A stretch of 64,000 nucleotides of DNA from Thermoproteota archaeon (GTDB lineage: Archaea; Korarchaeota; Korarchaeia; Korarchaeales; Korarchaeaceae). Position 1 is the first letter of the stretch, and each line of letters opens with the position of its first letter. The stretch is taken from contig JALSOH010000009.1 in NCBI GenBank assembly GCA_026986575.1, positions 1 to 64,000 of the forward strand, given 5' to 3'. Both the position numbers and the translations under genes were made by a program. The notes beneath the pieces are model-generated. The model saw only the letters and a program-made list of their open reading frames with translations, did no database searches and was not told where the DNA came from. Positions 47,503 through 64,000 of this stretch are shown here, piece by piece.

Positions 47503-47599
47503 AATCCTCCACTCTCAACTACTCTGGAATAATAAAAGGATACCAGCGTGTCAGATCACAGATGTTTCAGGAGAGCGAGGGCTTAGAAATACTCGTTGG

Positions 47600-48490: not shown

Positions 48491-48558
48491 CGGGATACTG
48501 TGGAGTGATATTCTAAAATAGTTTTTCTAGGGTAGGCAGCTCTTTTTGTAAAATATTT

Positions 48559-49688: not shown

Positions 49689-49747
49689 GCGTAAGGGACA
49701 CTAGGATGCATTTATATTTTGGGTGGACCACGACTCCCTGATAATGG

Positions 49748-51436
49748 ATGGAACCGAAGACCTTGGAGGAGATACTCAATCACCTGAGGAATTCTGGCCT
49801 TCCCCCCGAGAGGATAAATAAGTTCGTTAACCTGTTGAGGAAGGACGGAGTTCTAGATGTGATTGTGAGGGTCCTCAGCAGGTGCCGATCCTTGGAGGAT
49901 GCGCTTAAGGAGATCTCCAGCCTAGGAGGAATGGCCGATGTCTCTAAGGAGATCTCCCACAAGGTCAGTATAGTCAGGAACTTCGTCCTCACGTCCCTAG
50001 TGAATCTTTCCGTTGACAAGTCCTACATGAGGAGTTTCTTCAGGAAGAAGTCTAAGGCTAAGAAGCTAAGAGAGATACTTGTATCTACCGAGGAGGAGCT
50101 TAAGGAGACAGAGGCTCGTCTCTTAGAAGCCGTGAGGGGTGTACTCCTCAAGACCCTAGAATCCCTTGAGATCAGGGATGGAACACTCAAGGCTGAGATA
50201 GAAGGAATAAAAAGCCTTCAGGATCTAGAGATAGCCAAGAAAATTTGGAATAAGATTAAGCCCGAGTTAGAAAGGGCTGTGGATGGGACCAAGTCTCAAG
50301 GCCAAGTGAGAAGGGGCGAGGAGGCCGTGCTGATAACAGACGATTTACTCAACGAGATACTCGAAGCCTTGGCGAGGATGGAAGACAACAGGAAGGAGCT
50401 AGAGCTGAGAGGGTGCACCTTCCTCCTCCTCTCTGAGGTATCATCCCTCAAGGATCAGATCCTAAGCTGGCTCTCTTCTAACTTCGGGAAGGAGTCTTAC
50501 GGGGTAACTAGTCTCCTTAAGATAATAAGAAGGCTATCCGACGACTCGGAAACCCTCCTCTCTACTTCCATTAGACTGCTGAACTTGAGGTCCGAGCTTG
50601 AGGCGGTCAAGAGGGAGGTCTTGGATAAGATCAGCCGGAAGATGCCCCATCTCACGGAGGCCATATCGATGATAGGACTGAGCTCACCGAGGCTCCCCTG
50701 CATCATCTCCATGCCCGAGGAGATAGCCAGCCTGAGGTACGAGGTTTCAAGGCTTGGAGACACGGTGAATGCCCTCAAAGAGCTCAGCAGCGAGCTGGAT
50801 CACTTCACTGACGAGATCAAGTTCCAGCCGGAGAAGCTGTCCTACAGAACAGAGTCCGACTTCCTGAAGAGCCTAATAGAGACTCTCAGGGCCTTCAGAC
50901 TCTCTAGAGGACTCCCAAGCACGGCTTACTCTCTACCAGGTCTAATGGAGGAGCTGCTCTCCCTCTATCCGAGATGGAGGGAGTACGTGAAAGAACAACT
51001 GGAGGAAAAGGGCTACCTTGAGATAGGGGAACTCTCATTCATACCGGAGATGTGGAGAGAGTGGTTCCTTTCTAACTTGGAGGAGGAGGGGCTTACCACA
51101 ATCTCCGATGGGAAGATACTCCCCAGAGCTCCCAGTTCCGAACTAAGAAAGCTCAGAATGAAATTCGAGTTCCTGAAGGACACCTACGAGGACATGAAAC
51201 CCATATTCCAGAAGGCGGGGATAAGCGAGCAATACTTAAACTCCTTGGAGAGGAAGCTAGCCCTCCTGATGGATCCCAACTATGGGGGTGAAGATAGAGA
51301 GAAGCTGCAAAGGGAGGTTGAGGAAGGCATAGAAAGGGCCCTGAACGTTCTCAAGGGTGGTGGGGTGCCCGATGAGAAAGATGAGACTGGTGGTGATGGG
51401 CCCGCACCAAGCTGGCAAGTCCACCTTGATTCATAG
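49748..51436 (+). CDS. Long coiled-coil hypothetical protein (possible winged-helix segment near the C-terminus)
   Basis: 562 aa, helical; segment QLEEKGYLEIGELSF...LSNLEEEGLTTISDGKI. Confidence 0.8.
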   Translation: MEPKTLEEILNHLRNSGLPPERINKFVNLLRKDGVLDVIVRVLSRCRSLEDALKEISSLGGMADVSKEISHKVSIVRNFVLTSLVNLSVDKSYMRSFFRKKSKAKKLREILVSTEEELKETEARLLEAVRGVLLKTLESLEIRDGTLKAEIEGIKSLQDLEIAKKIWNKIKPELERAVDGTKSQGQVRRGEEAVLITDDLLNEILEALARMEDNRKELELRGCTFLLLSEVSSLKDQILSWLSSNFGKESYGVTSLLKIIRRLSDDSETLLSTSIRLLNLRSELEAVKREVLDKISRKMPHLTEAISMIGLSSPRLPCIISMPEEIASLRYEVSRLGDTVNALKELSSELDHFTDEIKFQPEKLSYRTESDFLKSLIETLRAFRLSRGLPSTAYSLPGLMEELLSLYPRWREYVKEQLEEKGYLEIGELSFIPEMWREWFLSNLEEEGLTTISDGKILPRAPSSELRKLRMKFEFLKDTYEDMKPIFQKAGISEQYLNSLERKLALLMDPNYGGEDREKLQREVEEGIERALNVLKGGGVPDEKDETGGDGPAPSWQVHLDS

Positions 51437-52016
51437 GCTCGATCCTTGGGCCGTCAGGATGGACTACTCCAAGGGCACCTTCTCAACCACCGTTGGCTTC
51501 GACTACGGCATAGTCCTCTGGGACGCTACTGAGGACAGGATATACAGGAGGGATCAGATAGATCTCGTGGACCCCTCGAACGAGATATGGAAGGTCACCA
51601 TAACCGGAACTCCGGGACAGATAGCCTTCGCCCCTGTGAGGAAGGTGCTGGCTAAGGGTAAGGATGGGGTGATGCTCGTGATCGACAGCGCACGTCCAGT
51701 TCAGATGGTCTACGCGTTGAGCCAGTATCAGGAGGCGAGGGAGTCTGCTGGTTCCGTGCCTCTCATAATACTCGCTAATAAGCAAGACCTTCCACATGCT
51801 AAGAGTGCCGAGACGATAGCCTCCCTCTTGGGCATAAGGTGCAGAGTCGTCCCGATATCCGCGCTGAAGGGGACCAATGTGGAGGAAAGCTTTCTCCAGT
51901 TTCTCAAGGAGGTAAGGAGAAGCATCCTCGCTAAGTCCATATCGGAGAGATTGGCCGAGAGAAAGGAGTCAAGGTGGATATCTTGGATGAGAAGAAAGCT
52001 AGCATCATCCGTTTGA
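51372..52016 (+). CDS. MglA/COG2229-type small GTPase
   Basis: GPHQAGKST, TTVGFDYG, TGTPGQ, ANKQD, SALKG; ATG 51372 after a GGGGTG RBS. Confidence 0.9.
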   Translation: MRKMRLVVMGPHQAGKSTLIHRLDPWAVRMDYSKGTFSTTVGFDYGIVLWDATEDRIYRRDQIDLVDPSNEIWKVTITGTPGQIAFAPVRKVLAKGKDGVMLVIDSARPVQMVYALSQYQEARESAGSVPLIILANKQDLPHAKSAETIASLLGIRCRVVPISALKGTNVEESFLQFLKEVRRSILAKSISERLAERKESRWISWMRRKLASSV

Positions 52017-52546
52017 GGGCTGACCTTTCTTTTAGACCCAAACCCAAATGCACGCTTACCTCCTCGGGTTACCGCGTCGAGGTGCTACCGATGGGATGTT
52101 CCTCTACCTGCGCCTCAATAATGATGGTCTCCTCCCTACCTACCCTCCGTCCCGAGGTCAGATTGATCGTCTGCGAAGAGGCGATCTCCATCAAATTGAG
52201 TGGTGTCCCGATACCCAAATCAAACCCTATCCTCATAGTACACAACAGATGCGACTTGGAGCTCGGCGGGAGGACGCTCGTGCTTCCCTGTGGGGAGGGG
52301 GCCCTCCCCACCTACTTGGAGGTCAGTAGCGTTAGAGAGGAGATGCAGGAAATAGGTCTCAATTTAAGGGGAAAGGTACTCTACAAAGGCGATCTCTCGA
52401 TATACCTCCTTCAACTGCCCACCGGAGGAGAGTTAATAGCAGGAGCAGGAGGTTCGATCATATTCAACCCTGGCAGCTACCTACTGATCACTGAGGCAGG
52501 AAGATCTAGACTCAAAGTAGATGGGGAAGAACTGATCCTCCCCTGA
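51974..52546 (+). CDS. Beta-rich hypothetical protein
   Basis: 190-aa ORF overlapping the GTPase 3' end; no motif recognised. Confidence 0.6.
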   Translation: MDILDEKKASIIRLRADLSFRPKPKCTLTSSGYRVEVLPMGCSSTCASIMMVSSLPTLRPEVRLIVCEEAISIKLSGVPIPKSNPILIVHNRCDLELGGRTLVLPCGEGALPTYLEVSSVREEMQEIGLNLRGKVLYKGDLSIYLLQLPTGGELIAGAGGSIIFNPGSYLLITEAGRSRLKVDGEELILP

Positions 52547-52548
52547 AA

Positions 52549-53061
52549 TCAAGGAACTTCAACGCTTTTGGAGACAATTTTCCCATTATCTAGGGTACCC
52601 CCTACCACCAGGATCTTACCGCTGGGTACGTACTCGGAAGGAATGAAAAGGGAGAGCTCCAAGCTTTCCTTAGGGTCAAGAGGGGCATCTAGTTGATAAC
52701 CACCCGTCACATTCTCTCCTGTGATGAGGTACACCTCTCCCCGCCCGAAGCCTAGGGTCTTGAATTGAAGCTTAACTATGGGGGAGCTACCTGCGTTACT
52801 AATCCTGAGATCTATGGCGTATCCACCCGTTGGATCCCTTAGGTAGCCGTATAGAGATGTAGGATATGAAAAGCTATAGATAGCATCGCTCGCGAGGTTA
52901 AAGGGTGGCTCAGGGAGATACTCAGATCTCAGTATCCTCACGTAAATGTCCTCTTCCAGCTCTCTAGCGGAAATAGTGGTCTGATACGCTATGAAGAGAC
53001 CTACAACGATCGAAATAGCGAGGACAATCGCTATCCAGCTCACATTCTCCGCGGTCTCCAT
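52549..53061 (-). CDS. Type IV pilin-like protein
   Basis: METAENVSWIAIVLAISIVVGLF; Ig-like C-terminal domain (ISNAG); paralog of 55174-55605. Confidence 0.75.
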   Translation of the reverse strand: METAENVSWIAIVLAISIVVGLFIAYQTTISARELEEDIYVRILRSEYLPEPPFNLASDAIYSFSYPTSLYGYLRDPTGGYAIDLRISNAGSSPIVKLQFKTLGFGRGEVYLITGENVTGGYQLDAPLDPKESLELSLFIPSEYVPSGKILVVGGTLDNGKIVSKSVEVP

Positions 53062-53081
53062 TTTGAACCTCCCATTGGAGA

Positions 53082-54677
53082 TCAGCGATAGAGCGCGAAG
53101 AGTGCCGGGGAGACCAGCGAATGAATAACCACTATCATTATCATCGAGACTATCGCGTATAATATACTCTGAATGTTTCCATGCCTAGTACCATCTGAGA
53201 CGCTGCTTGTGAAGATCCCGAATATGAAGATGAACATAACGGCGAATAGAAAGTAAACATCGATTATCCACGTCTTCGCCTTGAGGAAGGAGAGCAGCAT
53301 CAACATACCCTGCATCCCCGTGGCTATCTGGGTTCCCGCGTGTTGGACCTGAGCCATGGATTCGGACACCTTCTCACCTAGGAAGGCCATGAGGTCAACG
53401 AAGAGCATGCTGAAAGAGAGACTAACTGCCATCAGAAAGCTGTTCATGGAGAGAGTACCCCTTATCTTTTCGTAAACGGTGGACATGAGAGCTATTATCG
53501 TTCTGACGTTAAGAAGCGCTTCGTATCCGTAGATTCCCTTCTGGAGATCCGTTATCAGCTTCTTATATATCTTGTAAACGTAAATCCTCTCGAAGTCCTT
53601 CTTCTCAGGTATCTCCCCCACATTAACTAGGTTACCTAGGCTGAATTTGAGGACCTTCGAGAACCTCCCGTAAATGTCTAGGGGCATCGAGGTCACAGCC
53701 TCGGTGAATGTCTGCCCTATACTTATCCTCCCTCCCAAATCGGCTAGGAAAACCGGAAGGAACGTGTAGGTGTCCTTTCTCAGCCCAATGTACTCCTTAG
53801 TAGCTAGATATCCTACGATGAAAAAGGTCAGGACCCCCAAGAACAGGGAGTAAGTGCCGATTATGAAGTAACCAGCTACAGAGACCAGAGCGGCGAAAAT
53901 CAGCTGGATGAAGAACAACTTCCCACTGAACATTATTTGCTCGGGGTAGTACAGGAACTTGTTCTCTGAGAACAGGAGTATGAGCCCGACACCAAGCCCT
54001 AGGGCGAGGTTGATGAATAAGTACTCGACGAAGGGCATGTTGGCCACTCCACCGAGGAGAACCAGCATGAGGGGGGTCATTATGATGAAGGGCATGAGAC
54101 CGCTCAGGAAGGAGTTTATGAACCGTTCGAATGTCTCAATATTCCTCTGACTGTCTATGATCTCCTGCTGTATAACCATACTGAAAATCCCCTTGGTATC
54201 AATTCCCGTTGTCATCCCGTTGTATATGCTCGTCAGGAAGCTCTTGAAGCTCACTCCCAGTCTCTTTTCCTCTTGGAGAACCCTATTGATAGCTTCCCTC
54301 AGGTCCATGCCCATAAAGTAGAAGTAACCCATGATCTTCCTGAAGACATAGCTCCCCTCATATTCCCTCATTCGGGCGAACTGGTCAAATATGCCCGTGA
54401 CATCGAAACCTGCGTTGGCTAGTATGAAGCCATGCAACGCGAAGAGCACAGTCTCTCTGTTCACGAGCCCGTAATCCCTCCCCGTGGTGAAGAGACCGTA
54501 AAGGAGCATGATGGCGAAGAGAGGGATGAGGACGAGCACAACGTAATAGCCCGTTACGTAAGCGAGCACTCCGAGTAGCAGTGAGGAGGCGATTACCTTC
54601 TTTATGGCCCCCTCGAGCCTCTCCTTAGCGTTATATACTCCCCTCTTTTCAAGCTCAAGGGCTATAGCATCTAACAA
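53082..54677 (-). CDS. T4P/archaellum membrane platform protein (TadB/TadC/ArlJ-like)
   Basis: Two cytoplasmic T2SSF-like domains (MGMDLREAI; LPVFLADL...GQTFTEAV...YGRFS) alternating with TM bundles. Confidence 0.8.
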   Translation of the reverse strand: MLDAIALELEKRGVYNAKERLEGAIKKVIASSLLLGVLAYVTGYYVVLVLIPLFAIMLLYGLFTTGRDYGLVNRETVLFALHGFILANAGFDVTGIFDQFARMREYEGSYVFRKIMGYFYFMGMDLREAINRVLQEEKRLGVSFKSFLTSIYNGMTTGIDTKGIFSMVIQQEIIDSQRNIETFERFINSFLSGLMPFIIMTPLMLVLLGGVANMPFVEYLFINLALGLGVGLILLFSENKFLYYPEQIMFSGKLFFIQLIFAALVSVAGYFIIGTYSLFLGVLTFFIVGYLATKEYIGLRKDTYTFLPVFLADLGGRISIGQTFTEAVTSMPLDIYGRFSKVLKFSLGNLVNVGEIPEKKDFERIYVYKIYKKLITDLQKGIYGYEALLNVRTIIALMSTVYEKIRGTLSMNSFLMAVSLSFSMLFVDLMAFLGEKVSESMAQVQHAGTQIATGMQGMLMLLSFLKAKTWIIDVYFLFAVMFIFIFGIFTSSVSDGTRHGNIQSILYAIVSMIMIVVIHSLVSPALFALYR

Positions 54678-55161
54678 CTTCTACATCACCAGACTCCAAC
54701 CACATTATCACGAGGTAGTAGTCCTCTGATGGGTAGGAGGATATGGAGGGGAGATCTGTTAGGTTGACATCCACTTCAACCAATTCCTTCGCTGGGAACG
54801 ATATGACAGTTCCGTTCACCTCTGAGTACTTGGTTCCATTGTAGTAGATCGTGAGGTTCTCCCCGGTTTCACTGTAGAACACGGATATCCTGTCGGTGTA
54901 AACCCAGTCTCCGTAGTTGTAGAAGTGTATGGCAGTGTAATTGTGATCGGGGACGAGGCTTCCCCCGCTCAAGCGGTAGGTGGTGTTGGTATAGCAGGCC
55001 ACGACCGCTATGGATTTGCTGGAAGCCTTGGATGAGAGCCTGCTTATGTATGTGTGGGCCTCGGAATACTGGCTGTATGCCTTGATAAAAGCAGTAGAGA
55101 CTATAGCTAAGGCAACCAAAACTATACCTACCATAGCGAGCTTGGAAAAAGAGAGTTCCAA
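54655..55161 (-). CDS. Pilin-like protein
   Basis: N-terminal hydrophobic helix, FYNYG motif, several N-glycosylation sequons. Confidence 0.7.
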   Translation of the reverse strand: MELSFSKLAMVGIVLVALAIVSTAFIKAYSQYSEAHTYISRLSSKASSKSIAVVACYTNTTYRLSGGSLVPDHNYTAIHFYNYGDWVYTDRISVFYSETGENLTIYYNGTKYSEVNGTVISFPAKELVEVDVNLTDLPSISSYPSEDYYLVIMWLESGDVEVVRCYSP

Positions 55162-55173
55162 GGGGAGGTCCCC

Positions 55174-55605
55174 TTACGGAATCTCTATAGTCTGGGCAGC
55201 GGTCGTTCCATCACTGAAAGTAGCAGTTATCACCAAGGATTTGCTTCCAGAGACGTACCCTCCAGAGACCTTCACAGTGATATCCATTGTACCCTTCGGC
55301 GGTATGTTCAGAGTGGTGAGGTCAGCGGGACTTATTGGAGTCACGGAAGCGCCAGAGCCGAACCCGACGGGAGAGAGGTCTATACCAGTCAGCGTGTTTC
55401 CTCCTTCACCGGTGTTCACTATTCTGAAGCTGATGACGTAGGAGGAGTCAGCATCGGAGTACTGGCTGTTTATCAGCCTAACATAGAACCTCTGCCCGAC
55501 CTGCTGAGCTCCAGTGAGCACCTGACCCATCAGGAAGAGACCCACGACTGCCACAACCACCAGTACCAAGGCGATCCACACGACCTTTTCCACGGTTATC
55601 TGCAA
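55174..55605 (-). CDS. Probable major type IV pilin
   Basis: MQITVEKVVWIALVLVVVAVVGLF...IVNTG...ITATFSDGT; preceded by its own 255-bp AT-rich promoter region. Confidence 0.8.
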   Translation of the reverse strand: MQITVEKVVWIALVLVVVAVVGLFLMGQVLTGAQQVGQRFYVRLINSQYSDADSSYVISFRIVNTGEGGNTLTGIDLSPVGFGSGASVTPISPADLTTLNIPPKGTMDITVKVSGGYVSGSKSLVITATFSDGTTAAQTIEIP

Positions 55606-55860
55606 GGACTATACACCCTCCTTTATCATCTGCCATCCAAATAAAAAGATAGCCTTTCTTTTCCTAGAGCAATCGCCGACGTCCCTTATTTTTCTTTAAA
55701 GACAGTTTAGATCTGGAAAATTTGTAGGAAAAAAGAGAACAGAGGCTCTCCACGCAATCATGTCTTTATGGTAAACCCAATTATATAGATTAATTAGTGA
55801 CTGGTTGAATGCACAATATAATCAGTTCTAATGGCTAAGATTCAAAAATTTCAGGGATGT

Positions 55861-56232
55861 TCAAAGGCCCACGTTGTACTGGAACACGTGCTTTCCAACA
55901 TTCACGGCTATGATTACAACATCTCCTCTGAGATTCCCGTCACAGTAGCCGAACAACTTGACGGTCCTCTCTGTGTATGAGATCTCGCTCACATTGCATG
56001 GAGATCCATTAGTTTTCATAACCGTAATATTCTGAATTTCGCTATCTGATGTAATAGAAATGATGAACCAAGTTCTATTCTGTGAGAATTCAGAGTCCTC
56101 GACTCTAACCATTATACCCGGCTCCATGATCTTCATTTGGGTGGGGAGGACCTCAAACACTATGGATCCCACTACGATGATTGACGTAAGAGCTATCACG
56201 ATGAGGGATATGGTCTCTAGTGTTATCTCCAA
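55861..56232 (-). CDS. Pilin-like protein
   Basis: MEITLETISLIVIALTSIIVVG; GGAGGTGA RBS 4 nt before the TTG. Confidence 0.72.
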   Translation of the reverse strand: MEITLETISLIVIALTSIIVVGSIVFEVLPTQMKIMEPGIMVRVEDSEFSQNRTWFIISITSDSEIQNITVMKTNGSPCNVSEISYTERTVKLFGYCDGNLRGDVVIIAVNVGKHVFQYNVGL

Positions 56233-56236
56233 GGGC

Positions 56237-57814
56237 TCACCTCCTGTAATACCACCTGACCAGCTCCCTGTAGAAGTCCTCCAGCTCTAAGTCCATGTGA
56301 GTGAGTAGGAAGTCCAGCCTGTCCTCGAACTCATCCCTGAGATCGCTGACGGGTACGTTGGTTCTGGAGTGCAGCTGCCACAGGAACCTGTCCAGATCGA
56401 AGTCGGTGGGGTGCTGGTACACACGTATCATATCACCCGTGCTTATGTCTACCATGTAGATCTGGTCCAAGACCCTCCTGTCCTCCTTTATATTCAGGAA
56501 GAGGAGGGACCAGAGCTCCCTCATCACCGAATTGATCAGCTCCTCACTGGCGTTCTCTCCGTAGTACATCCTGAGGAGCATCCTGACCCTCAGCTTGAAT
56601 TCCTCCACCGTGTTGGCGTGTATGGTGAAGGCCAGCCCGTGACCGGTCTGAGAAGCGATCACATCCCCCAGCTCCCTTCCCAAGACCTCAGCCAGTATCA
56701 GGAGGTCGGGGGTGATTCTGAGGGCGAACTTCACTATCTCGTAGAATTCCCCTCCCCTAGCGTAGTAGGGGACCCAACTGTTACCCTTGAACCTCAGAGC
56801 GAGCTCCTCAATGTCCTCTATTGTTACCAGCTTCTTTCTCGGATCGAACATGGCCAGGGCGGCGTTGAGGAGGGTGGTCTTGCCCGTACCCACTGGGCCC
56901 GAGTAGGCGACCTTGCCCTTGTGGTCGACCATCATCCATATGGCCACGGCTGCCTCGGGTGAGAGGGACCCGAACTTTATCAGGTCATTGAATAGGAACG
57001 GTTTAGCGGGGAACTTCCTTATCTGCACAGTGGTCTGCTCGCTCTTAACCCCGCCGAAGCTCGCAGCCACTCTGAATCTGAGGCTCCCGTCCTTGCTCTT
57101 GTACATGAAGGAGACGAGCGGGGTGGCCTCGCTTATACCCCTCCCGTAGAGCGAGGCGATCCTAGAGGTGAACCTCCTAAGAGCTATCTCCGTCGGGAAC
57201 CTGACGTTGGTGTTTATCCACCTGCCCGCGAAGCGCCTCATCTTCACCCTGACAGGCTCCGTTCCCTTAACATCGATGTCAGTTATGTTCCAATCGTATA
57301 TGAGGGGCTGGATCATGCCGAAGCCTATGGTGTCCCTCAGCACGTAGTACATGACCACATCTTTCCTCAGGTTGAACTCGGTCTCAAGCCTGTACTTCCT
57401 GACTATGTCCTGTATAACCTCCTCAAGCCTACCAGCCACGAGTTTGTCGTAGTACTGCTCTTGGAACATCATCACGTCCGAAAGTATGAGGTTGATCAGT
57501 TTCTTGTCGTTCTTGGTGAGCATCCACTCGTTGACCACGTACCTGTAGCTTCCATCAGACTCCCTCACTAGGACGTTGGTGAAGCCCGTCCCCTCGGCCC
57601 TCATCAGTTCCCTACCAGGAGGAACTTCCTCCCTGGTTACGTAGATCTCCTTACCTATGATTGGTATCTTAAGCTCTTCCTGTTCCTTTCTCCTTCTTTC
57701 CTTCTTGCTCTCCAGATCGACCGATTCCAACCCCTCTATGACGCTGACCATATTCAGATTCAGGGAAATTCCCCTGAGAGGAAACCTCAACTTCCCGATC
57801 CCTAACATAAGCAC
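56237..57814 (-). CDS. Type II/IV secretion ATPase (TadA/ArlI/VirB11 family)
   Basis: IGFGMIQPL, IRKF, GPVGTGKTT, TIEDIEEL, LLILAEV, TGHG..TIHA. Confidence 0.93.
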   Translation of the reverse strand: MLMLGIGKLRFPLRGISLNLNMVSVIEGLESVDLESKKERRRKEQEELKIPIIGKEIYVTREEVPPGRELMRAEGTGFTNVLVRESDGSYRYVVNEWMLTKNDKKLINLILSDVMMFQEQYYDKLVAGRLEEVIQDIVRKYRLETEFNLRKDVVMYYVLRDTIGFGMIQPLIYDWNITDIDVKGTEPVRVKMRRFAGRWINTNVRFPTEIALRRFTSRIASLYGRGISEATPLVSFMYKSKDGSLRFRVAASFGGVKSEQTTVQIRKFPAKPFLFNDLIKFGSLSPEAAVAIWMMVDHKGKVAYSGPVGTGKTTLLNAALAMFDPRKKLVTIEDIEELALRFKGNSWVPYYARGGEFYEIVKFALRITPDLLILAEVLGRELGDVIASQTGHGLAFTIHANTVEEFKLRVRMLLRMYYGENASEELINSVMRELWSLLFLNIKEDRRVLDQIYMVDISTGDMIRVYQHPTDFDLDRFLWQLHSRTNVPVSDLRDEFEDRLDFLLTHMDLELEDFYRELVRWYYRR

Positions 57815-57821
57815 ACCCCCC

Positions 57822-58970
57822 TCACGGTAAACCGGGAGATCCCTCCATGAACTCGGACGAGAAGACCCTGCCGAGATCAGTAACTATCTCCACAGCCGTT
57901 ATCTTGTTCCTCGCATCCTCGAAGGAAAACCTAGAGTAAGTGGCAGGGCTCAGACCCTCAGGCAGATCCCCGAAGGAGAGCTTCCTCACCTGAGGGGGAG
58001 TGAGATACGTGGGTGCAGCGAATATCTCATCAAACCAAGCATCATCGGCCATGCTGGTGCTCTGAGGAAGATTTATCTGGTTCAGATTGGGCTGGAAGCC
58101 GCTATCTATCTCGGATTCGAAGTCCACAATTCGCCCGTTGACGAGGAAGTAGAACTCACTGATCCAGTTAGTGCCATTCCAGTACCTCCTCGTGGTCACG
58201 CAGTAGTGGTTCCATTCATCCGGAGCCGCTACTCTCTCATCGGGCTGATCCAGTTCCATCCCGTTGGTTATCTTCGCGATGATTCTGGGACTACCTGAGT
58301 GCGGGTCCACCCAAAACTCGAAATCCTGAAGCTTCAGCAGGAGCCAAGGAGATCCCGATCCCTTGGGATTCCTGACCATGATCCAGGAGCATCCGGTGTA
58401 GTTGTAACTCGAGGGGAGCTGGAAGTGACCCACTCCCCAGTTATCGTAATTTAGATCCACGTGCAGAGAGAAGCCCCTCAGCCCCGCCTCCAGCCTAGCT
58501 GCGATGGGGTTGTTCCCCCACCTGAGATCCCCCACACCCCTATCATCATAAATGGTGACGAACCCTGTGCAATCGGGCTGATCACACTCTAGATGGGGCC
58601 TTACGTACTCCAAGAGGCTCACCTTCACGGATTCACCTTCCCCGAGCGGAACCCCCGGACCGGTCCATGTGCCAGCGGGAAGGTTAGTGTCGTTTATCGA
58701 GAGTTCCTTGAAGAAGGTGGGTGTCCTTGATCCGTTGATGTGGACGTAGAGATACCTTAACACCGTAGATCTTCCCCTATTAACTACCAGGAGGCTATAC
58801 CTGTCTAACCATCTTATGAGAACGCTCTCTTTGGATCTCTCCCTCTCCATCTCCAGTTTCTTCCTCATCTTGACCACTGACTGACTCGCGGAAGTCTGCG
58901 CGCTAAGGAAGAAGGAGAGAGCTATCACTGTCAAAAAAACAAAGAAGATGAGGCCGATGGCGCTGTCCAC
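57822..58970 (-). CDS. Minor pilin/adhesin with inserted LamG (concanavalin-A-like) domain
   Basis: Pilin helix plus ERSKE, WNHYC, FLVNG, FDEIF, C-terminal VTDLGRVF. Confidence 0.75.
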   Translation of the reverse strand: MDSAIGLIFFVFLTVIALSFFLSAQTSASQSVVKMRKKLEMERERSKESVLIRWLDRYSLLVVNRGRSTVLRYLYVHINGSRTPTFFKELSINDTNLPAGTWTGPGVPLGEGESVKVSLLEYVRPHLECDQPDCTGFVTIYDDRGVGDLRWGNNPIAARLEAGLRGFSLHVDLNYDNWGVGHFQLPSSYNYTGCSWIMVRNPKGSGSPWLLLKLQDFEFWVDPHSGSPRIIAKITNGMELDQPDERVAAPDEWNHYCVTTRRYWNGTNWISEFYFLVNGRIVDFESEIDSGFQPNLNQINLPQSTSMADDAWFDEIFAAPTYLTPPQVRKLSFGDLPEGLSPATYSRFSFEDARNKITAVEIVTDLGRVFSSEFMEGSPGLP

Positions 58971-58979
58971 CTAAGTCCC

Positions 58980-61796
58980 CTAGCCCTTCCACACGTAGCT
59001 CCCCGAGAAGGGAACCTGGTAGCTCTCCACCCCACCGCGTCCCTTGAAGAACACGTTGAGGGTGAATGAACTCAGCTCGTGGCTCAGATGCAGCGTGAAC
59101 GTCCCGTCAGGACTGACTATCACCGCATCGCCCGTCTCAGCCACCACTACCTGCACGAACTCCCACTCGTTCTGCGGCCTGAACTCCGTTCCATCGTCCC
59201 ACACTAGCCTACCGGTCACGGTGGTACCTGATACCTGCACATCGTCGAATCTCAGCGTTCCAACCCTAGCGTTGACCCTCACAGTGTAGCCATCAGTCCT
59301 CACGAGCTCTATGGTCACGTTGTTGCCTATGAGGGACATGGCCTCGCCGGGATGCTCCAGCAGATCGTACAGCGGGAAGAACTGCAGACCCTTACCTCCG
59401 CTGGTATCCACGTAGGTCTTGTTCTCCACCTCGTTGTACACCATCGGCAGGCCGGTCACGTAGGTGGAGCCGTTCCAGTACTTCGCGTACTTGGAGACGA
59501 TTATGTAGGTCCCACTAAAGTTGCCCGGAAGCTCCACGTCAAGCCATCCGCCAAGTATCACTCTGGTGTTGTAATTCGCACCAGCGGTGATCTCGGTAGT
59601 GGCGTTCGGGTTCCTCACGAGGCGCAGGGTCACTTCGGAGGTGAGGTTGTCGGAGGTCAGGGCTATGGTCAAATTGGACGGGAAGTAACCCTCCTTAGAT
59701 GCGGTGATCAGCCAGGTCCCCTCATCGGAGGAGAAGTAAGCCGTACCATTCGCATCGGTGTAGGAGAAAGCGCTCATCCCATCAGATTCCTTGGTCATGA
59801 CGACGTAAGCCTGATCTATAGGTCCAGAAGTCTCGTTGTCCACGACATGCACCGTGAGCACTCCCTCAGCCCTCTGAAGCCTCATCTCATAGATCCCGGA
59901 GTGGTCTATGAGTATAGTCTCATTCCTCGGTAGGTAGCCCTCCTTGTAGGTGTAAACCCAGTAGAGTCCGGGGTCTATGGGATGGTCGGGCTGCCACATA
60001 CCTGTTCCATCTGTGGTACCTTCAAGTCTGACATCTGGGGAGCCTATAATGACAGTTGCGCTGGGGATGACTTCGCTCGTCTCGTTGTCGAGGACCTTTA
60101 TCACAGGCGTGACCTTGTGGTCGGGCTTGGTGAACAGCACTATCGCATCCGAGTAGAGCAGATTGTTGTAGGCCAGCAGCGCTATGCCGCTGAAATCTTT
60201 ACCATTCAGGTCGATGGTCCCCTCGAAGACGTAGACGTTGTGGTAGCTGTGATGGCATCCACATCCCCATCCATGCCCGCTCTCCACCAAGTGGCCCGGC
60301 AGCTCGTACTCATCAGATACGGTGAACTTGAAGAGGGAGCCAGCGTAAGAGTGCCATATCATCTCATCTATGTCTCTCTCCTTCTCAAACGAGGAGATCA
60401 CAAGTAGCTTAGCCTTGGTGAAGTTGTTCTCCCACACGATGTTCGGATCCACCCAGAGCTTCACATGGTATCTCTTCGGCCCGATCGTCTCAATGGTGTA
60501 ATTGAGGATGGTCGGCCTCAGGACGGGACCGTAGACGATCTTCCTTTCCATACCATCGGTGGTATTGAGGGATGCGATGAACACAGGGAGGTCCTCGTTG
60601 TAGAAGAGCACATCCTCCACGCTAGCGGAGGCCGTGGCCTCGACGCTCCTGTGGTAGAAGGTCAGGTGATCCGTCACACTCTCCGAATCTATCTCCCTGA
60701 TAGGAGCGTCATCCAAGCTCGGATAGACGAAGGAGTCTTTGTACACCAGATCGTTAGAGAAGAGGAACCAGCGGAAGTAGTGATGCCACCACCTCCATCC
60801 CCAAGTGGTGACGTTGGAGTAGAAGTACCTGAACATGTGTCCCTCATCGGTGTCCCAAGATCTCTTCCTCTCGTAGGCCACGCTTCCATACCTGTACGCT
60901 GGGCACGGGGTGAGCATCATCGATATCCTAGTGGTGGTCGGGTTGCAGTGACAGTAATTCATAGCCTCCTCATGTGTCAGGAACCTGTTGGAGGTCACGT
61001 TGAAGTAGAAGAACGCGAAGCTGTAAGCTATCCCGTTGACATTCAGGTGTGGGAAGAAGCCCGATACCACGTCGCTGGAGGAGCAGCTACCGCAGTGTCC
61101 GCAGTGCCCGAAGAGGTGGAATTTCTCCGTGCGGAGGAGCTCCCACTTGCCGTAGTTGTTGAACCACACCGACACATTGGCGTACCTGCCTCCGCAGCAC
61201 CCTCCTTCCTCCACCTCAGCCGTTATCTTGAATGGTCCGCAGACATTCCCGAAGCACTGGCTCACATTGAAGGTGGCGAATGTAGGGGCAGCCTTCAGCA
61301 GGGAGTGCCCTATCGCGAATGCCCTGAATGGCTCGCGATTCAGGACGTGGTCCTCCCATCCTGGGCGGAACAGGAACTCGTACTTGTTATAGAGGTGCTT
61401 GATATAGTTGGAGTCTATCGCTCCAATGAACGCCTCCGCTGTAACTGGTACGTCCATATCTCTAGCATCCCATCCACAGCAGCTGGCCCTCAATCCGGAC
61501 TCGACGTCAAACCTGAGACCGTGGTGAGATATGAGCAGATCCACATCTAGGTCCTTGCTACAGTGACATGCCGGGGAAGCTGGGCAGCCTATATCACCCT
61601 CGTGAACCTCGTAGGTGAAGATGCTCCAGAATGGGTGCAACGGATTGCTGTATACTGGAAGAACCGGGACTATAAGGATCGATAATGTCAGAATAAGGAT
61701 AATCCTTTTCCAAAATCTTCCATCCAAATTCCTCCTCAGGGCTTTCATTTCCATCTCCGCGCTCGTGCGCTCGGTAACTCTTATTAACCTTCTCAT
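58980..61796 (-). CDS. Large secreted adhesin-like protein: Cys/His-rich N-terminal region and carboxypeptidase-regulatory/PEGA-like repeats
   Basis: Signal peptide; two V.DNET..I..A.V...TD..G...KEGY.P repeats; multiple CC/CHC/HCGHC clusters. Confidence 0.78.
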   Translation of the reverse strand: MRRLIRVTERTSAEMEMKALRRNLDGRFWKRIILILTLSILIVPVLPVYSNPLHPFWSIFTYEVHEGDIGCPASPACHCSKDLDVDLLISHHGLRFDVESGLRASCCGWDARDMDVPVTAEAFIGAIDSNYIKHLYNKYEFLFRPGWEDHVLNREPFRAFAIGHSLLKAAPTFATFNVSQCFGNVCGPFKITAEVEEGGCCGGRYANVSVWFNNYGKWELLRTEKFHLFGHCGHCGSCSSSDVVSGFFPHLNVNGIAYSFAFFYFNVTSNRFLTHEEAMNYCHCNPTTTRISMMLTPCPAYRYGSVAYERKRSWDTDEGHMFRYFYSNVTTWGWRWWHHYFRWFLFSNDLVYKDSFVYPSLDDAPIREIDSESVTDHLTFYHRSVEATASASVEDVLFYNEDLPVFIASLNTTDGMERKIVYGPVLRPTILNYTIETIGPKRYHVKLWVDPNIVWENNFTKAKLLVISSFEKERDIDEMIWHSYAGSLFKFTVSDEYELPGHLVESGHGWGCGCHHSYHNVYVFEGTIDLNGKDFSGIALLAYNNLLYSDAIVLFTKPDHKVTPVIKVLDNETSEVIPSATVIIGSPDVRLEGTTDGTGMWQPDHPIDPGLYWVYTYKEGYLPRNETILIDHSGIYEMRLQRAEGVLTVHVVDNETSGPIDQAYVVMTKESDGMSAFSYTDANGTAYFSSDEGTWLITASKEGYFPSNLTIALTSDNLTSEVTLRLVRNPNATTEITAGANYNTRVILGGWLDVELPGNFSGTYIIVSKYAKYWNGSTYVTGLPMVYNEVENKTYVDTSGGKGLQFFPLYDLLEHPGEAMSLIGNNVTIELVRTDGYTVRVNARVGTLRFDDVQVSGTTVTGRLVWDDGTEFRPQNEWEFVQVVVAETGDAVIVSPDGTFTLHLSHELSSFTLNVFFKGRGGVESYQVPFSGSYVWKG

Positions 61797-61868
61797 CCAT
61801 TATTTAGCTCCAAAATCACAGGAGGCGGCTCCCTCATGAAAAAAATGTCGCTCAGCGAGTGCTGTTCG

Positions 61869-63014
61869 CTACCCAGGTATTAAACTCTGAGGGGTACTGG
61901 AAGCGAATATCACGCCGAGATCGGTCACTAGATCGATCCTAGTGATGATATTAGGGAGCCTATCGAAGGAGAAGTATATGTACGGCACTCCTGGATCGAA
62001 TATCGCGTTAGCGGCTAGGGCCCTCACCGCGCTGGGTTCGAGGTATCTCCTAGCGATGTAAAGATCGTCGAACGCAGCCACCTCAGCCTTTTCATACTGC
62101 TGGTGAGGTAACTGGATGTAAGAGACACTCAAAGGAGAGGGCTGGCTCTTCATGTCCACCACTCTACCGTTCACGTAGAAGAGCATGTGAGTACCATTGG
62201 AGACGAGGCAGTAATGGTTCCAGTTGGTGGCATTCGCGTAGTCCGTTCCTTGGACTAGGTCGGTTCCAGCGACCCTCAGGAAGACCCTAGGGTGATATTC
62301 CCCCCCATCGAAGTTGGGATCCACCATAATCTGAATAGAGTCCATATCCAATACCGTCCACGGGCTCCCCCAGTTCTTGTGATCTATGATCTTAAGCCAG
62401 AGACAGACGGTCCAATTCTCTCCAGACGAGAGCCCTGTGTCCACCCTTGGCCTTGTGACGGCAGACAGATTCCTATACAGCGCGTAACCATCAGCCCCGA
62501 AGTCTAACCAGCTTGCGTTCAGGAACTGCTCGTCAGGGAAGTATTTGGAGGGATCCGTATCTGAGGGAATGGGGACCTGCAGCAAAGAGGAAGAACCACT
62601 AGCTATCTGCTCCAGATTGTAGAGAATCCTCCAGTGCCCGAACTGCTCTAAGTTTAATCTCACCCTGACGTTAGGACCCAGTAGAAGGCCTTCTGAGTAG
62701 TAGTGAGGTCTCAGGGTACCATTGACGATAGCTACCAGATCTTCTACTTTCAAGCGGAAGTTCGGCACCCTTGAGCCGTTGACGTAAATGTAGATGTACC
62801 TTACGCTGGTATTGGTGCCGAGATTCCTCAATGTAACGTCATATCTCCCCATCCAATTTATCTCAGCGTTTTCCTTCGCCCTTTCCCTCTCAAGGGCTAG
62901 GATCTTCTGCACATTATTTGAAAGAGAGAGGAAATCTGTCTGTATCTGGACGACCAAGCCGATCATGAGCAGTATTATGATGGCAAAGAATAGTAGAGCT
63001 ATGGCACTTTCCAC
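61869..63014 (-). CDS. Minor pilin/adhesin with LamG domain (paralog of 57822-58970)
   Basis: ERERAKE, YVNGSRVP, GSPW, WNHYC, FYVNGRVVD, FDDLY, VTDLGVIF. Confidence 0.75.
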   Translation of the reverse strand: MESAIALLFFAIIILLMIGLVVQIQTDFLSLSNNVQKILALERERAKENAEINWMGRYDVTLRNLGTNTSVRYIYIYVNGSRVPNFRLKVEDLVAIVNGTLRPHYYSEGLLLGPNVRVRLNLEQFGHWRILYNLEQIASGSSSLLQVPIPSDTDPSKYFPDEQFLNASWLDFGADGYALYRNLSAVTRPRVDTGLSSGENWTVCLWLKIIDHKNWGSPWTVLDMDSIQIMVDPNFDGGEYHPRVFLRVAGTDLVQGTDYANATNWNHYCLVSNGTHMLFYVNGRVVDMKSQPSPLSVSYIQLPHQQYEKAEVAAFDDLYIARRYLEPSAVRALAANAIFDPGVPYIYFSFDRLPNIITRIDLVTDLGVIFASSTPQSLIPG

Positions 63015-63171
63015 TTTTCGCAGCCCCCTTTCCCGTCAGTATGGAACACCTCCAATATATCCCTAACTTACAATTCTTTCTGTTCCTGTCCAACGGTAAA
63101 AATTAGATGGGATTGGGTGGACCCTTTACTTCCGCGTTTTACCCTTTTAAGCATCATACATATCACAATGA

Positions 63172-63927
63172 GTGAAAATGAAAATTCCACCGTCGCACTT
63201 GAAGTTGGGCTTGGTGGTTCTATTAGTAATCCTATGCATCCCTCTAGTGAGGAGCTTTGCTACGGAGGGATGGATAACTGGTATAAGCACGGAGGAAACC
63301 CCCACCAACGAGACGGCTGTTAAAGTCACCGTCGAAATCGGAGTTAAGGTCCAGTTTGACTCTCCTGGCTATTACGTGGTACTTATAAGGGACGACTCGA
63401 CTGGCGAGTACCTCGCGGAATCCATCAGGTACTCGGTGGGGGCCATATCAGAGGAGAAGACGATAACTCTGCACTTCGAGAGACCAACAGACCCCGGAAC
63501 TTATTCATACACCGCCATTTTGAAGATGAAGGATTCATCCTCTGGATGGTTCGATGCTGACACGGAGCACTTCTCGATCGTGGTACCGGTCCCTCAGACC
63601 ATCACAAACGTTACCACAGTCACCCTGACGGAGACAGTGACTAAAGCCTTGGAATACCTTCAAACTGTAACCCAGACGGTTACTGCAACGGAGACGACAA
63701 CGTACACTCAGATTAACATAACTACCCTCACGATCCTCAGGACGGTGATCCAAAACCTCACAAAAACAGCCACCCTGACTAGGAACATCACCCTGACCAA
63801 GGTAATCACGGTAACGGTTACTCCCGTATCCCAAGAGAGTCCATCAATGGATGTTCGACTGATCGGTTTGGGGGTTATTGGCGTTCTAGTGGCTATTCTC
63901 TTGGTGATGGCCCTGAGGAGGAGGTGA
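63172..63927 (+). CDS. Surface protein: Ig-like domain, Thr-rich stalk, C-terminal TM with RRR tail
   Basis: Signal peptide; TVTxT repeats; LIGLGVIGVLVAILLVMALRRR. Confidence 0.8.
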   Translation: MKMKIPPSHLKLGLVVLLVILCIPLVRSFATEGWITGISTEETPTNETAVKVTVEIGVKVQFDSPGYYVVLIRDDSTGEYLAESIRYSVGAISEEKTITLHFERPTDPGTYSYTAILKMKDSSSGWFDADTEHFSIVVPVPQTITNVTTVTLTETVTKALEYLQTVTQTVTATETTTYTQINITTLTILRTVIQNLTKTATLTRNITLTKVITVTVTPVSQESPSMDVRLIGLGVIGVLVAILLVMALRRR

Positions 63928-63957
63928 TAGAGATCTAGAGAGCTGGAGGGCCCCGCC

Positions 63958-64000
63958 ATGAAGAAGATGAAGATCGTGGTGATAGGACCCCATCAGGCCG
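63958..64000 (+). CDS. Second MglA-type small GTPase (5' fragment)
   Basis: GGAGG RBS, then MKKMKIVVIGPHQA, closely matching MRKMRLVVMGPHQA of the 51372 GTPase. Confidence 0.75.
   Translation, partial: MKKMKIVVIGPHQA

Follow-up and report, generated by a model that had tools for sequence, protein, structure and literature searches.

In a few bacteria, Ras-like GTPases organise cell polarity and the placement of pili; in eukaryotes they organise membrane traffic. For archaeal small GTPases, roles are almost unknown, one tested case being vesicle formation in Haloferax (PMC10927574). The window analysed here, positions 1 to 64,000 of a 267,443-bp contig (C9) from the 1.91-Mb, 99.7% complete genome (G000) of a Korarchaeum-type archaeon, raises the question of whether such switches might also act on an archaeal surface filament. 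Pilus control by the two GTPases that flank its type IV filament (T4F) locus is possible.

Two GTPases and the locus between them

The first-pass annotation described a pilus operon bracketed by two MglA-type GTPase paralogs, an arrangement that stands on closer inspection (Table 1). The nine minus-strand pilus ORFs, among them a T4F ATPase, are collinear from 52549 to 63014, and the stop codons of pilin170 and p190 converge 2 bp apart, as had been described. On the other side, the surf251/GTPase2 pair and the pilus operon diverge across a 157-bp intergenic region. The downstream ORF, which might have proved incomplete, was read beyond position 64,000; its ATG at 63958 opens MKKMKIVVIGPHQA, and it runs to C9:64560 as a complete 200-aa GTPase with the expected P-loop, so that both GTPase ORFs are complete.

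Table 1. Positions of the features discussed in the text, with the basis for each assignment.
Feature	Positions	Strand	Basis
ArfR-like GTPase, ~115-aa C-terminal extension, upstream module	47600..48490	-	Pfam Arf 3.8e-53
Roadblock/LC7-like protein, candidate MglB-like partner	48559..48948	-	Robl_LC7 E 0.0017, 18.5 bits (cut-off 23 bits)
cc562, 562-aa helical/coiled-coil protein, predicted GTPase1 partner	49748..51436	+	complex prediction
GTPase1, MglA group 2-5 type, 214 aa	51372..52016	+	motifs; Pfam Ras/Arf; TIGR00231
194-nt tract identical to C9:64021-64214 in GTPase2, codons ~22-86	51435..51628		repeat comparison, read depth
p190, two-beta-sandwich, conserved Cys/His, module member	51974..52546	+	AF2 model, alignment
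pilin170, pilin-like, 170 aa	52549..53061	-	paralog of pilin143/pilin123, common N-terminal motif
Probable T4F platform protein, polytopic, 531 aa	53082..54677	-	Atlas cluster neighbours
Pilin-like protein, 168 aa	54655..55161	-	N-terminal hydrophobic helix; non-significant Pilin_N E 0.094
pilin143, pilin-like, 143 aa	55174..55605	-	AF2 model and Foldseek
pilin123, pilin-like, 123 aa	55861..56232	-	paralog of pilin143/pilin170, common N-terminal motif
T4F assembly ATPase	56237..57814	-	T2SSE 6.4e-21
Pilin-like N-terminus and LamG-type lectin domain, 382 aa	57822..58970	-	Laminin_G_3 E 9.8e-4, below cut-off; paralog of 61869-63014 protein
Large secreted/anchored protein, 938 aa	58980..61796	-	CarboxypepD_reg 5.6e-12
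Pilin-like N-terminus and LamG domain, 381 aa	61869..63014	-	Laminin_G_3 6.2e-9; BasB match at N-terminus 6.9e-4, below cut-off
surf251, putative surface protein, first gene of GTPase2 pair	63172..63927	+	hydrophobic N-terminal segment, Thr-rich region, hydrophobic C-terminal segment
GTPase2, 200 aa, start within window, end C9:64560	63958..64000	+	ORF read past window end

GTPase1 begins MRKMRLVVMGPHQAGKST and contains the motifs GPHQAGKST, STTVG, GTPGQ, NKQD and SAL. It is 68% identical to GTPase2 (134/198 residues, E 2e-102), with which it has the P-loop GPHQAGKST in common, and the two are the only strong copies in the 1.91-Mb genome, the third match having an E value of 2.3e-4. In both paralogs G3 reads TGTPGQ, without the conserved Asp of DxxGQ; across 23 family members P81 and G82 are invariant and G79, T80 and Q83 nearly so. 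G2 is FSTTVGFD, with a Thr replacing the intrinsic Arg finger, and T40 is invariant in the alignment. The Arf score of the two GTPases is 43 bits, versus 180 for the ArfR-like gene, and a PDB profile search is non-discriminating (Arf 2.2e-16, Ypt1 6.3e-15, MglA 1.6e-13). In the sections of Wuichet & Sogaard-Andersen (2014, PMC4316618) drawn on here, a GTPGQ G3 with a Thr-Thr G2 is the signature of MglA groups 2-5, and a TVPGQ G3 with an intrinsic Arg finger in G2 that of group 1. By its motifs, GTPase1 is classified as a switch of the MglA group 2-5 type, which agrees with the earlier "MglA-type" label, and group-1 identity is ruled out for both paralogs. To our knowledge, a role in pilus polarity is established for group-1 MglA only. 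No roadblock gene was found among the listed ORFs around GTPase2.

The island between the GTPases, whose T4F identity is borne out, encodes an ATPase, a probable platform protein, four small pilin-like proteins, two pilin-LamG proteins and one large surface protein. The ATPase matches PF00437 (T2SSE) with 74.8 bits (cut-off 24.9, E 6.4e-21), and its best NCBIfam matches, BasE (2.2e-46) and FlaI (4.2e-38), are both far below their cut-offs. The platform protein has no match to Pfam T2SSF (PF00482), and 29 of its 30 nearest Atlas clusters are archaeal T2SSF (score 0.97). An AF2 model of pilin143 (pLDDT 86.6) features an N-terminal helix (residues 5-36) followed by a beta-sandwich, with full-length Foldseek matches to the archaeal type IV pilins 8fk7 (E 8.6e-5) and 8q30 (6.8e-4) and further matches to the archaeal pilins 8tib and 6w8x. 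The small pilins have an unusual leader, M-(E/Q)-x-T-x-E, which contains no basic residue and lacks a G/A cleavage context, and the Pilin_N match of the 168-aa protein is not significant (E 0.094). The pilin-like proteins thus have no typical class III leader, which leaves the filament type itself uncertain. The genome has a prepilin peptidase gene outside the locus (C7:4391-4708; PF01478 35.6 bits, over the cut-off). Two other T2SSE ATPases are encoded elsewhere in the genome and occur in all 21 genus genomes, so the island ATPase is an extra, third one. Orthologs of it, at 67% identity or more, fall into 10 clusters, with the next relative at 33%.

Conserved module and accessory island

GTPase1 lies in a module comprising the membrane protein memb272, p152, the ArfR-like GTPase, the roadblock-like gene and cc247, followed divergently by cc562, GTPase1 and p190. 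The roadblock-like gene, two genes from GTPase1, scores below the Robl_LC7 cut-off, and the roadblock genes next to the GTPase or close by in other genera (G022 contig C1 and G021) score above it, with 38.9 and 55.2 bits. In these other genera the GTPase adjoins roadblock genes, without pilus genes. The ArfR-like gene is kept beside the roadblock gene in the loci of eight relatives. The cc562 gene, whose product matched no Pfam family, immediately precedes the GTPase gene in clades A and B; in G022 the two genes diverge. The p190 protein has the invariant residues C42, C46, C67, H90 and C93, and its AF2 model (pLDDT 86) has no specific fold match (Foldseek E at least 1.9e-3, VIA Z at most 5.4).

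All five neighbourhoods read among island-less genomes (G012, G015, G016, G017 and G001) contain a GTPase1-type module, with the gene content memb272-p152-ArfR-roadblock-p190-cc247/cc562-GTPase preserved. A GTPase of this family is encoded without an ortholog of the island ATPase in nine genomes of the genus, six of which are 96% complete or better, absence being defined as no match at E <= 1e-20. These comparisons indicate that the module is conserved across the genus and that GTPase1 belongs to it and not to the island. Because family GTPases occur without the island ATPase in these nine genomes, and without pilus genes in other genera, GTPase1 is independent of the pilus.

The island was detected in 8 of 21 genus genomes, which marks it as accessory in the genus. 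It abuts the module in each of the six testable genomes (G000, G020, G011, G005, G010 and G019); in G007 and G003, the other two ATPase-positive genomes, contigs end too early, and none contradicts adjacency. Gene order differs in G019, where the platform gene is followed by cc562. GTPase2 was seen in island-bearing genomes only, always with surf251 (G000, G020, G011 and G007; 4/4 island-positive). Absence of the linkage from relatives had been named beforehand as grounds for abandoning the proposed connection, and the outcome is divided: the linkage is kept wherever the island is testable and GTPase2 is confined to island-bearing genomes, but the GTPase1-type module also exists in relatives without the island. 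G020 has a further insertion of about 4.2 kb just downstream of GTPase2.

It is possible, if somewhat unlikely, that the two units adjoin with no functional connection, a variable region beginning on the 3' side of the GTPase, where the island arrived once, the GTPase was duplicated at that time and later conversion between the copies (vide infra) was neutral. The island-less clade is syntenic with G000 from the ilvD side through the GTPase and no further, as this explanation would have it, and the GTPase genes lie as direct repeats (271 nt, 90%, spacing 12,586) on either side of the island, with no other notable repeat in 17.5 kb. Duplication could have occurred by, for example, recombination within the GTPase gene, leaving direct repeats 12.6 kb apart. 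The accessory distribution of the island (8/21) and the extra insertion in G020 fit as well, as does the limitation of the adjacency to close kin, since one ancestral arrangement could explain all cases. However, the island borders showed neither an integrase nor a tRNA, the adjacency has outlived rearrangement of the module (the order in G019, G008 and G003), and GTPase2 is kept with surf251 in four species. A tree of the C-terminal half separates GTPase2, GTPase1 and single-copy clades (SH-aLRT 99, 96 and 97), and dN/dS for GTPase2 between G000 and G020 (0.034/0.449) indicates purifying selection. GTPase2 is thus an old paralog under purifying selection, and not a recent by-product.

Identical tract, predicted partner and possible link to the filament

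A tract of 194 nt spanning switch I, a family-specific insert and G3 is identical between GTPase1 and GTPase2. Short-read assemblies cannot phase an exact repeat of this length, and contigs of several relatives stop inside GTPase genes, which might suggest that mis-assembly of a metagenome bin created the tract or the second GTPase. This is extremely improbable. In run X1 the tract forms a separate 194-nt contig at a depth of 32.5, with flanks at 13.6-16.5, and in run X2, from a different study, contigs break at the same four points; the doubled depth and repeated breakpoints mean that the repeat is real. Each paralog also has the same pairing of N- and C-terminus in G020, G011 and G007, whose tracts are less than fully identical.

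Homogenisation of this region is seen in all four species with both copies. Over nt 61-240 the two paralogs of a genome are mostly 76-100% identical, with the lowest single 30-nt bins at 53-60%, compared with roughly 35-77% downstream (4/4 species); dS is 0.02-0.50 within the tract, and flanking dS is mostly saturated. In G007, both copies carry substitutions that are absent from other species. This pattern indicates gene conversion between GTPase1 and GTPase2 across codons ~22-86. As the tract is the most conserved part of the GTPase family in the alignment, conversion there may have no selective value and simply follow from similarity.

A complex between cc562 and GTPase1 is predicted with an ipSAE of 0.67 (runs 0.67, 0.62 and 0.68), the best of three controls reaching 0.00, with contact agreement of at least 57% and partner pLDDT of at least 76. 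The benchmark for the ipSAE mark (116 of 157 solved complexes reach it, as do 2 of 215 mismatched pairs) holds roughly, since our own alignments were used. The predicted interface on GTPase1 comprises 35 residues, 18 of them inside the tract, and tract residues take part in 24 of the 25 contacts with the lowest error; the tract is thus predicted to hold about half of the surface that docks cc562. Of the 17 interface residues outside it, GTPase2 shares 7, the complex having been predicted for GTPase1 only.

The best explanation of the whole, with a probability of about 0.5, is a conserved module beside an accessory island, with cc562 as a shared partner and GTPase2 linked to the filament. GTPase1 would serve the conserved cellular function of the module, cc562 would be an effector or regulator common to both GTPases, and GTPase2 may connect this partner, or the same regulators, with the surface filament of the island, for instance in its placement or assembly. 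The connection of GTPase2 and cc562 with the pilus proteins is suggested by position and co-occurrence within one genus. In a stronger form, which we consider unlikely, the paralogs would compete for or share cc562 through a docking surface kept by conversion, and GTPase2 would be dedicated to the island, placing or switching on the filament as an archaeal Ras-like T4F switch. More doubtful still is the reading, in line with the original suggestion, that both GTPases form the output of the Arf/roadblock module and act directly in placing or activating the pilus, in the manner of MglA and SofG in Myxococcus. The island does lie beside the module in all six testable genomes, in two gene orders, the GTPases have an MglA-type G3 motif with a candidate roadblock gene near, and cc562 could parallel the helical protein SgmX that is reported to connect Myxococcus MglA with pili. 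Nevertheless, family GTPases persist in nine genomes without the island ATPase ortholog and in other genera without nearby pilus genes, the two genus-conserved T2SSE loci lie elsewhere, and neither TVPGQ nor the Arg finger of group 1 is present.

Should GTPase2 act on the filament, Archaea too would have GTPase control of type IV filaments; if the switch reading is true, this would be the first small-GTPase control of an archaeal surface filament, and a case of concerted evolution preserving a shared protein interface. In either case, neither the conserved ArfR/roadblock/MglA-like/coiled-coil module nor the interface-confined conversion is described in the main texts of the literature searched. 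As a system open to experiment, the locus is compact and has three parts: an MglA-like switch and its predicted coiled-coil partner, a neighbouring ArfR-like GTPase with a roadblock protein, and a paralog present only with the optional island.

Comparison with known systems

ArvA of the Haloferax vesiculation operon is likewise an archaeal small GTPase, with homologs reported in 8 Korarchaeota (PMC10927574, as far as consulted). An ArvABC operon was rejected here, as the neighbours are different and no OapB/ArvB (PF09846) match was found at E <= 1 in the 99.7%-complete genome. With the Sulfolobales T4F (bindosome BasABC-EF, Aap, Ups) the island has in common a minimal archaeal T4F core; BasE is the best family match of its ATPase, the pilin143 fold matches Aap and Saccharolobus pilins, and the pilin-like N-termini fused to LamG recall the class III signal peptides fused to binding proteins there. 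Bindosome identity was rejected (BasB 19.6 bits versus a cut-off of 230), and at 158.7 bits versus a cut-off of 1000 the ATPase is not a BasE equivalog. Unlike the bindosome, the island lacks ABC-transporter binding proteins, and leaders are almost absent. The main text of a 2026 survey (PMC13705601) reports no small GTPases beside such T4F loci.

Korarchaeal ArfR GTPases are described in a preprint (10.1101/2024.02.28.582541), in the main text of which the strings "roadblock", "gene neighbo" and "synten" are absent. The gene at 47600-48490 resembles korarchaeal and Asgard ArfR, being a Korarchaeum Arf-family GTPase in the module of GTPase1, whereas GTPase1 and GTPase2 belong to the other family by their Arf scores (43 bits vs 180).

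MglA/MglB/SgmX and SofG of Myxococcus xanthus also feature a Ras-like GTPase without the G3 aspartate, and a roadblock gene nearby, for which the roadblock-like gene is the candidate here. MglA there is reported to reach the type IV pili by way of SgmX, a helical protein; here, cc562 is predicted to be a large helical partner, and a type IV filament machine is adjacent. The korarchaeal GTPases differ from Myxococcus group-1 MglA in having GTPGQ and not TVPGQ at G3, a Thr and not an Arg finger in G2, and an additional insert that separates G2 from G3. The machine here is an archaeal T4F with one ATPase, and the GTPase is also found in relatives that lack the island locus.

MglA groups 2-5, including the actinobacterial conservon CvnA-D, resemble the korarchaeal system in GTPGQ, Thr-Thr and a conserved multi-gene module, with a candidate roadblock gene within four genes of GTPase1, although the histidine kinase of the conservon has no counterpart here. 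A "Group 4 MglA" was reported for the single korarchaeal genome then known (PMC4316618), and this protein may belong to the GTPase1 family or be ArfR-like. Whereas no conserved neighbours are reported for group 4 in the consulted sections of that work, the GTPase described here lies in a conserved 8-gene neighbourhood.

Layout of the island and its flanking GTPases

The window lies on a 267-kb contig of a 1.91-Mb genome (G000, 99.7% complete), and the close homologs of its proteins carry the source names Candidatus Korarchaeum sp. or Korarchaeota. Nine collinear genes, all on the minus strand (52549-63014), form a type IV filament (T4F) island that is flanked by genes for two paralogous small GTPases. 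The ORF map agrees with the first-pass annotation that this operon converges on the operon of GTPase1 and p190 with a 2-bp gap. The second GTPase, which that annotation had allowed might prove an incomplete ORF, is a complete 200-aa protein. A divergent gap of 157 bp separates the island operon from surf251.

Genes of the island and its flanks (numbers in names are lengths in aa)
Gene	Position	Strand	Remarks
cc562 (coiled-coil protein)	49748-51436	+	overlaps GTPase1 start by 65 nt
GTPase1	51372-52016	+	214 aa
p190	51974-52546	+	directly after GTPase1
pilin170	last gene of the nine-gene set, 52549-63014	-	stop 2 bp beyond p190 stop
platform candidate	next to pilin170 in island	-	531-aa polytopic membrane protein
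pilin168, pilin143, pilin123	between platform candidate and ATPase genes	-	
T2SSE-family ATPase	between pilin123 and pilin-like/LamG genes	-	
two pilin-like/LamG proteins	either side of 938-aa protein gene	-	
938-aa protein	between the two pilin-like/LamG genes	-	CarboxypepD_reg domains
surf251	63172-63927	+	N-terminal hydrophobic segment, Thr-rich region, hydrophobic C-terminal segment
GTPase2	63958 onward	+	30 bp after surf251; completed beyond the window

No tRNA was found at the borders of the island locus, no inverted repeats in a repeat search of 17.5 kb, and no integrase among the downstream ORFs with family matches. A promoter and terminator scan of bacterial type, which does not suit archaea, returned sites no more numerous than in shuffled sequence.

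Conservation of the module and the island in relatives

Eight genes (46214-52546), namely memb272, p152, an ArfR-like GTPase, a roadblock-like protein, cc247 and, divergently oriented, cc562, GTPase1 and p190, form a module conserved throughout the genus, in island-bearing and island-free genomes alike. The ArfR-like GTPase has a C-terminal extension of ~115 aa, and the roadblock-like protein of G000 scores 18.5 bits against a Pfam cut-off of 23. In G000 ilvD and the module are separated by a Pro/Thr-rich ORF of 366 aa (45109-46209); it is absent at that position in the relatives G012 and G015, where ilvD adjoins memb272.

For comparison, 41 genomes were searched with GTPase1 and the ATPase, and 30 neighbourhoods were read by tblastn with the window proteins. 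The series memb272, p152, ArfR-like GTPase, roadblock, p190, cc247 and then divergent cc562 and GTPase is kept in five genomes (G012, G015, G016, G017 and G001) with no ATPase match at E <= 1e-20. Nine genomes of the genus, six of them at least 96% complete, have a GTPase of this family without an ortholog of the island ATPase; two further T2SSE ATPases are encoded at other places in every genome of the genus. Conserved gene order places GTPase1 in the module and, judged by gene content, the island is not needed for it. The position and strand of p190 vary between clades; G012-type genomes have it flanked by cc247 and roadblock. The GTPase gene of G012 shares 4 nt with cc562 (L031:10265-10268), an overlap that suggests translational coupling, and in G000 a C-terminal extension of cc562 creates the 65-nt overlap with GTPase1 (51372-51436).

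An ortholog of the island ATPase (at least 70% identity) is present in 8 of 21 genomes of the genus, and in six of the eight (G000, G020, G011, G005, G010 and G019) the island abuts the module. The contigs of the other two, G007 and G003, end before the junction, and no genome contradicts the adjacency. The module order differs in G019, G008 and G003 (GTPase, cc247, cc562); in the rearranged G019 the platform gene faces cc562, so the neighbourhood survived rearrangement. In G009 a pilin170-like gene stands at a contig start beside p190, and no ATPase was found in that assembly. By these gene orders, genomes that carry the island have kept it next to the module. GTPase2 and surf251 occur together in G000, G020, G011 and G007, all island-positive, and the pair adjoins the LamG end of the island in G000, G011 and G020; on this distribution GTPase2 is the only island-specific GTPase. 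The small ORF downstream of GTPase2 (G000 contig 64760-65158) is interrupted in G020 by an insertion of ~4.2 kb (L043:4899-9430), so that this flank is also variable.

The linkage proposed in the first-pass annotation was thus found in relatives wherever contigs permit, but the GTPase1-type module persists without the island, and the interpretation given there is supported in part. It is possible, though less likely than the reading favoured below, that island and GTPases are adjacent with no working link: the accessory nature of the island and an adjacency seen among close kin would fit such a reading, and purifying selection on GTPase2 and the survival of the adjacency through a rearrangement speak against it. 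In other genera of the family, a roadblock-V4R-GTPase operon occurs in G021 (L038:7041-8754), a cc562-like gene with a GTPase-roadblock arrangement on contig C1 of G022 (L036:7744-10820), and a GTPase among metabolic genes on its contig C3; no pilus genes were found near the family GTPase in these three neighbourhoods.

By PPDK identity, the island-positive G000-like genomes form one clade (93-96%) and the island-negative genomes another (81-84%); G003 and G002 gave no match to the marker, and G019 fell outside that sample. Identities of ilvD (83-84%) give no order for the three clades, that of G019 and G003 included, and the two markers do not separate an ancestral island lost in clade B from one gained later. 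A locus search with the ATPase found no genomes beyond the seven representative ones already found. The longest contig is 190,582 nt in both GTPase cluster P0019 and ATPase-ortholog cluster P0036, and 29,551 nt in both GTPase cluster P0020 and ATPase-ortholog cluster P0034, which may point to additional genomes that carry the two genes on the same contig.

Family assignment of the GTPases and the filament proteins

Both GTPases contain the motifs GPHQAGKST (G1), STTVG (G2), GTPGQ (G3) and SAL (G5), with NKQD or NKHD as G4. Across 23 family members, P81 and G82 of G3 are invariant, and G79, T80 and Q83 nearly so. MglA groups 2-5 are described as having in common GTPGQ in G3 and a Thr that replaces the intrinsic Arg finger, and group 1 (Myxococcus and Thermus MglA, SofG) as having TVPGQ and the Arg finger (Wuichet & Sogaard-Andersen 2014, PMC4316618). 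The label "MglA-type" from the first-pass annotation therefore holds at the motif level, since GTPGQ and the Thr-Thr of G2 fit groups 2-5; however, the korarchaeal GTPases differ in both features from the group-1 proteins behind what is known of pilus polarity. A single-sequence search gave Arf at 3.9e-11, Rab11 at 3.2e-9 and MglA at 3.6e-7, and a 23-sequence profile placed Arf, Rab and MglA structures all within about three orders of magnitude. Because plain similarity does not separate these structures, the MglA assignment rests on motifs. An ArvA reading was rejected, no OapB family match being found in the genome.

The GTPase family is small, with 31 protein clusters (E <= 1e-5, 5.8 billion sequences), the named ones nearly all korarchaeal; a search with GTPase1 gave matches in 18 of the 24 genomes that belong to its taxonomic family and in 1 of 16 outside it. 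An Asgard protein named ADP-ribosylation factor-like at source (P0030) is 38% identical to GTPase1 with the same G2-G3 insert region, and from it the family may have Asgard relatives. The stronger version of the original interpretation, in which both GTPases directly regulate the pilus, draws on the MglA-type motifs and the bracketing of the island, but the proteins are not of group 1 and GTPase1 is independent of the island; we regard it as improbable.

The island ATPase matches Pfam T2SSE (6.4e-21), and its best NCBIfam matches are BasE (bindosome ATPase) and FlaI (archaellum ATPase), both far under the equivalog cut-offs. A Pfam T2SSF search with the platform protein returned nothing; by language-model features (Atlas), 29 of its 30 nearest clusters are archaeal T2SSF (score 0.97). 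Three small pilin-like proteins (pilin170, pilin143 and pilin123) are paralogs with an N-terminal motif in common. Pfam searches with the pilin-like proteins at E <= 10 gave non-significant matches only. The AlphaFold model of pilin143 (pLDDT 86.6) has a long N-terminal helix and a beta-sandwich, and Foldseek aligns it over its full length with archaeal type IV pilins from Pyrobaculum (8fk7, 8.6e-5), Saccharolobus (8tib, 6w8x) and Sulfolobus (Aap, 8q30, 6.8e-4); all these rows stand among generic Ig-like matches. A prepilin peptidase gene is present in the genome outside the locus. The leaders of the small pilins are almost missing (M-(E/Q)-x-T-x-E), an uncommon trait among class III signal peptides. 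Glu at position 6 is invariant in the three aligned paralogs (genes within 52549-56232), with no basic leader, and would become +5 if only Met were removed; bacterial type IV pilins have Glu at +5. The fusions to LamG suggest a filament for adhesion or binding and not a motility pilus.

Gene conversion and a proposed common partner

Window positions 51435-51628 are exactly identical to contig positions 64021-64214 over 194 nt, with flanks ~50-73% identical. No other notable repeat was found in 17.5 kb; the two copies are direct, with a spacing of 12,586 nt. An assembly artefact is a very remote prospect: in read run X1 the tract forms a separate 194-nt contig at depth 32.5, with neighbouring contigs at 13.6-16.5, and run X2, from another study, has contig boundaries at the same four positions. 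The repeat is no artefact.

In all four species with both copies assembled, the paralogs are far more alike over nt ~61-240 than over the rest of the gene; their dS is 0.02-0.50 in the tract and mostly saturated in the flanks. In G007 the two copies have substitutions in common that are not seen in other species. The C-terminal half yields a tree with three well-supported clades (GTPase2, GTPase1 and single-copy), and in the tract tree the G000 paralogs pair together, as do those of G007. Purifying selection acts on GTPase2 (dN/dS about 0.08, G000 vs G020). Judged from these comparisons, concerted evolution is confined to codons ~22-86, which include switch I, the family-specific insert and G3, and conversion may simply follow the most conserved segment of the family. 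The tract repeats could also loop out the whole island to leave a chimeric GTPase; a joint of this kind did not appear in the four runs, which all consist of contigs, and contigs drop rare variants.

For complex prediction with GTPase1, cc562 was chosen because no other gene is as tightly coupled to the GTPase. The predicted complex has an ipSAE of 0.67 (runs 0.67, 0.62 and 0.68), against 0.00 for the best of three controls. Among solved complexes 116 of 157 attained the ipSAE mark, and among mismatched pairs 2 of 215, counts that apply approximately here, as own alignments were used. At least 57% of contacts recur across the runs, the partner pLDDT is at least 76, and model confidence supports binding of cc562 to GTPase1. 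The predicted interface involves residues ~397-486 of cc562, including part of its best-conserved stretch, and residues 26-76, 109-117 and 183-194 of the GTPase. On the GTPase side the interface comprises 35 residues; the conversion tract contains 18 of them, which are for that reason identical in GTPase2, and 7 of the 17 outside it are identical too. Tract residues take part in 24 of the 25 contacts with the lowest error. From this model, made with GTPase1, we infer that both paralogs can probably dock on cc562.

The model of p190 has two beta-sandwich domains (pLDDT 86), and its invariant residues C42, C46, C67, H90 and C93 may form a metal site. Searches of Pfam and NCBIfam assigned p190 to no family, and Atlas gave no usable match; Foldseek gave weak bicupin-like rows only (best E 1.9e-3, TM ~0.3), and VIA-align generic beta-sandwich rows (Z <= 5.4) with no specific fold match.

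The reading that we favour, at a probability of about 0.5, is a composite one. In it, cc562 would be a common effector or regulator of both GTPases, with roadblock, p152 and p190 as candidate regulators; GTPase1 would run the conserved cellular task of the module, and GTPase2 would couple the same partner to the island filament, the link to the pilus being one of position among close kin.

No paper describing a small GTPase next to an archaeal T4F locus turned up in a literature search, though supplements might hold relevant gene tables. The main text of a 2026 survey of archaeal T4F machineries (PMC13705601) does not mention GTPase, MglA, roadblock or Korarchae, and neither pili, GTPase nor Arf occurs in a korarchaeal phylogenomics preprint. 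A 2024 preprint (10.1101/2024.02.28.582541) describes korarchaeal ArfR, and its main text nowhere contains 'roadblock', 'gene neighbo' or 'synten'. One 'Group 4 MglA' has been listed in the then only korarchaeal genome, in a group described as having no conserved neighbours (Wuichet & Sogaard-Andersen 2014, PMC4316618), and at abstract level MglA is described as acting on pili through SgmX. The MglA-like switch module and the archaeal T4F island are kinds already known, of which the G000 locus is a variant, and the new testable leads that it offers are the predicted coiled-coil partner, cc562, and conversion confined to the interface.
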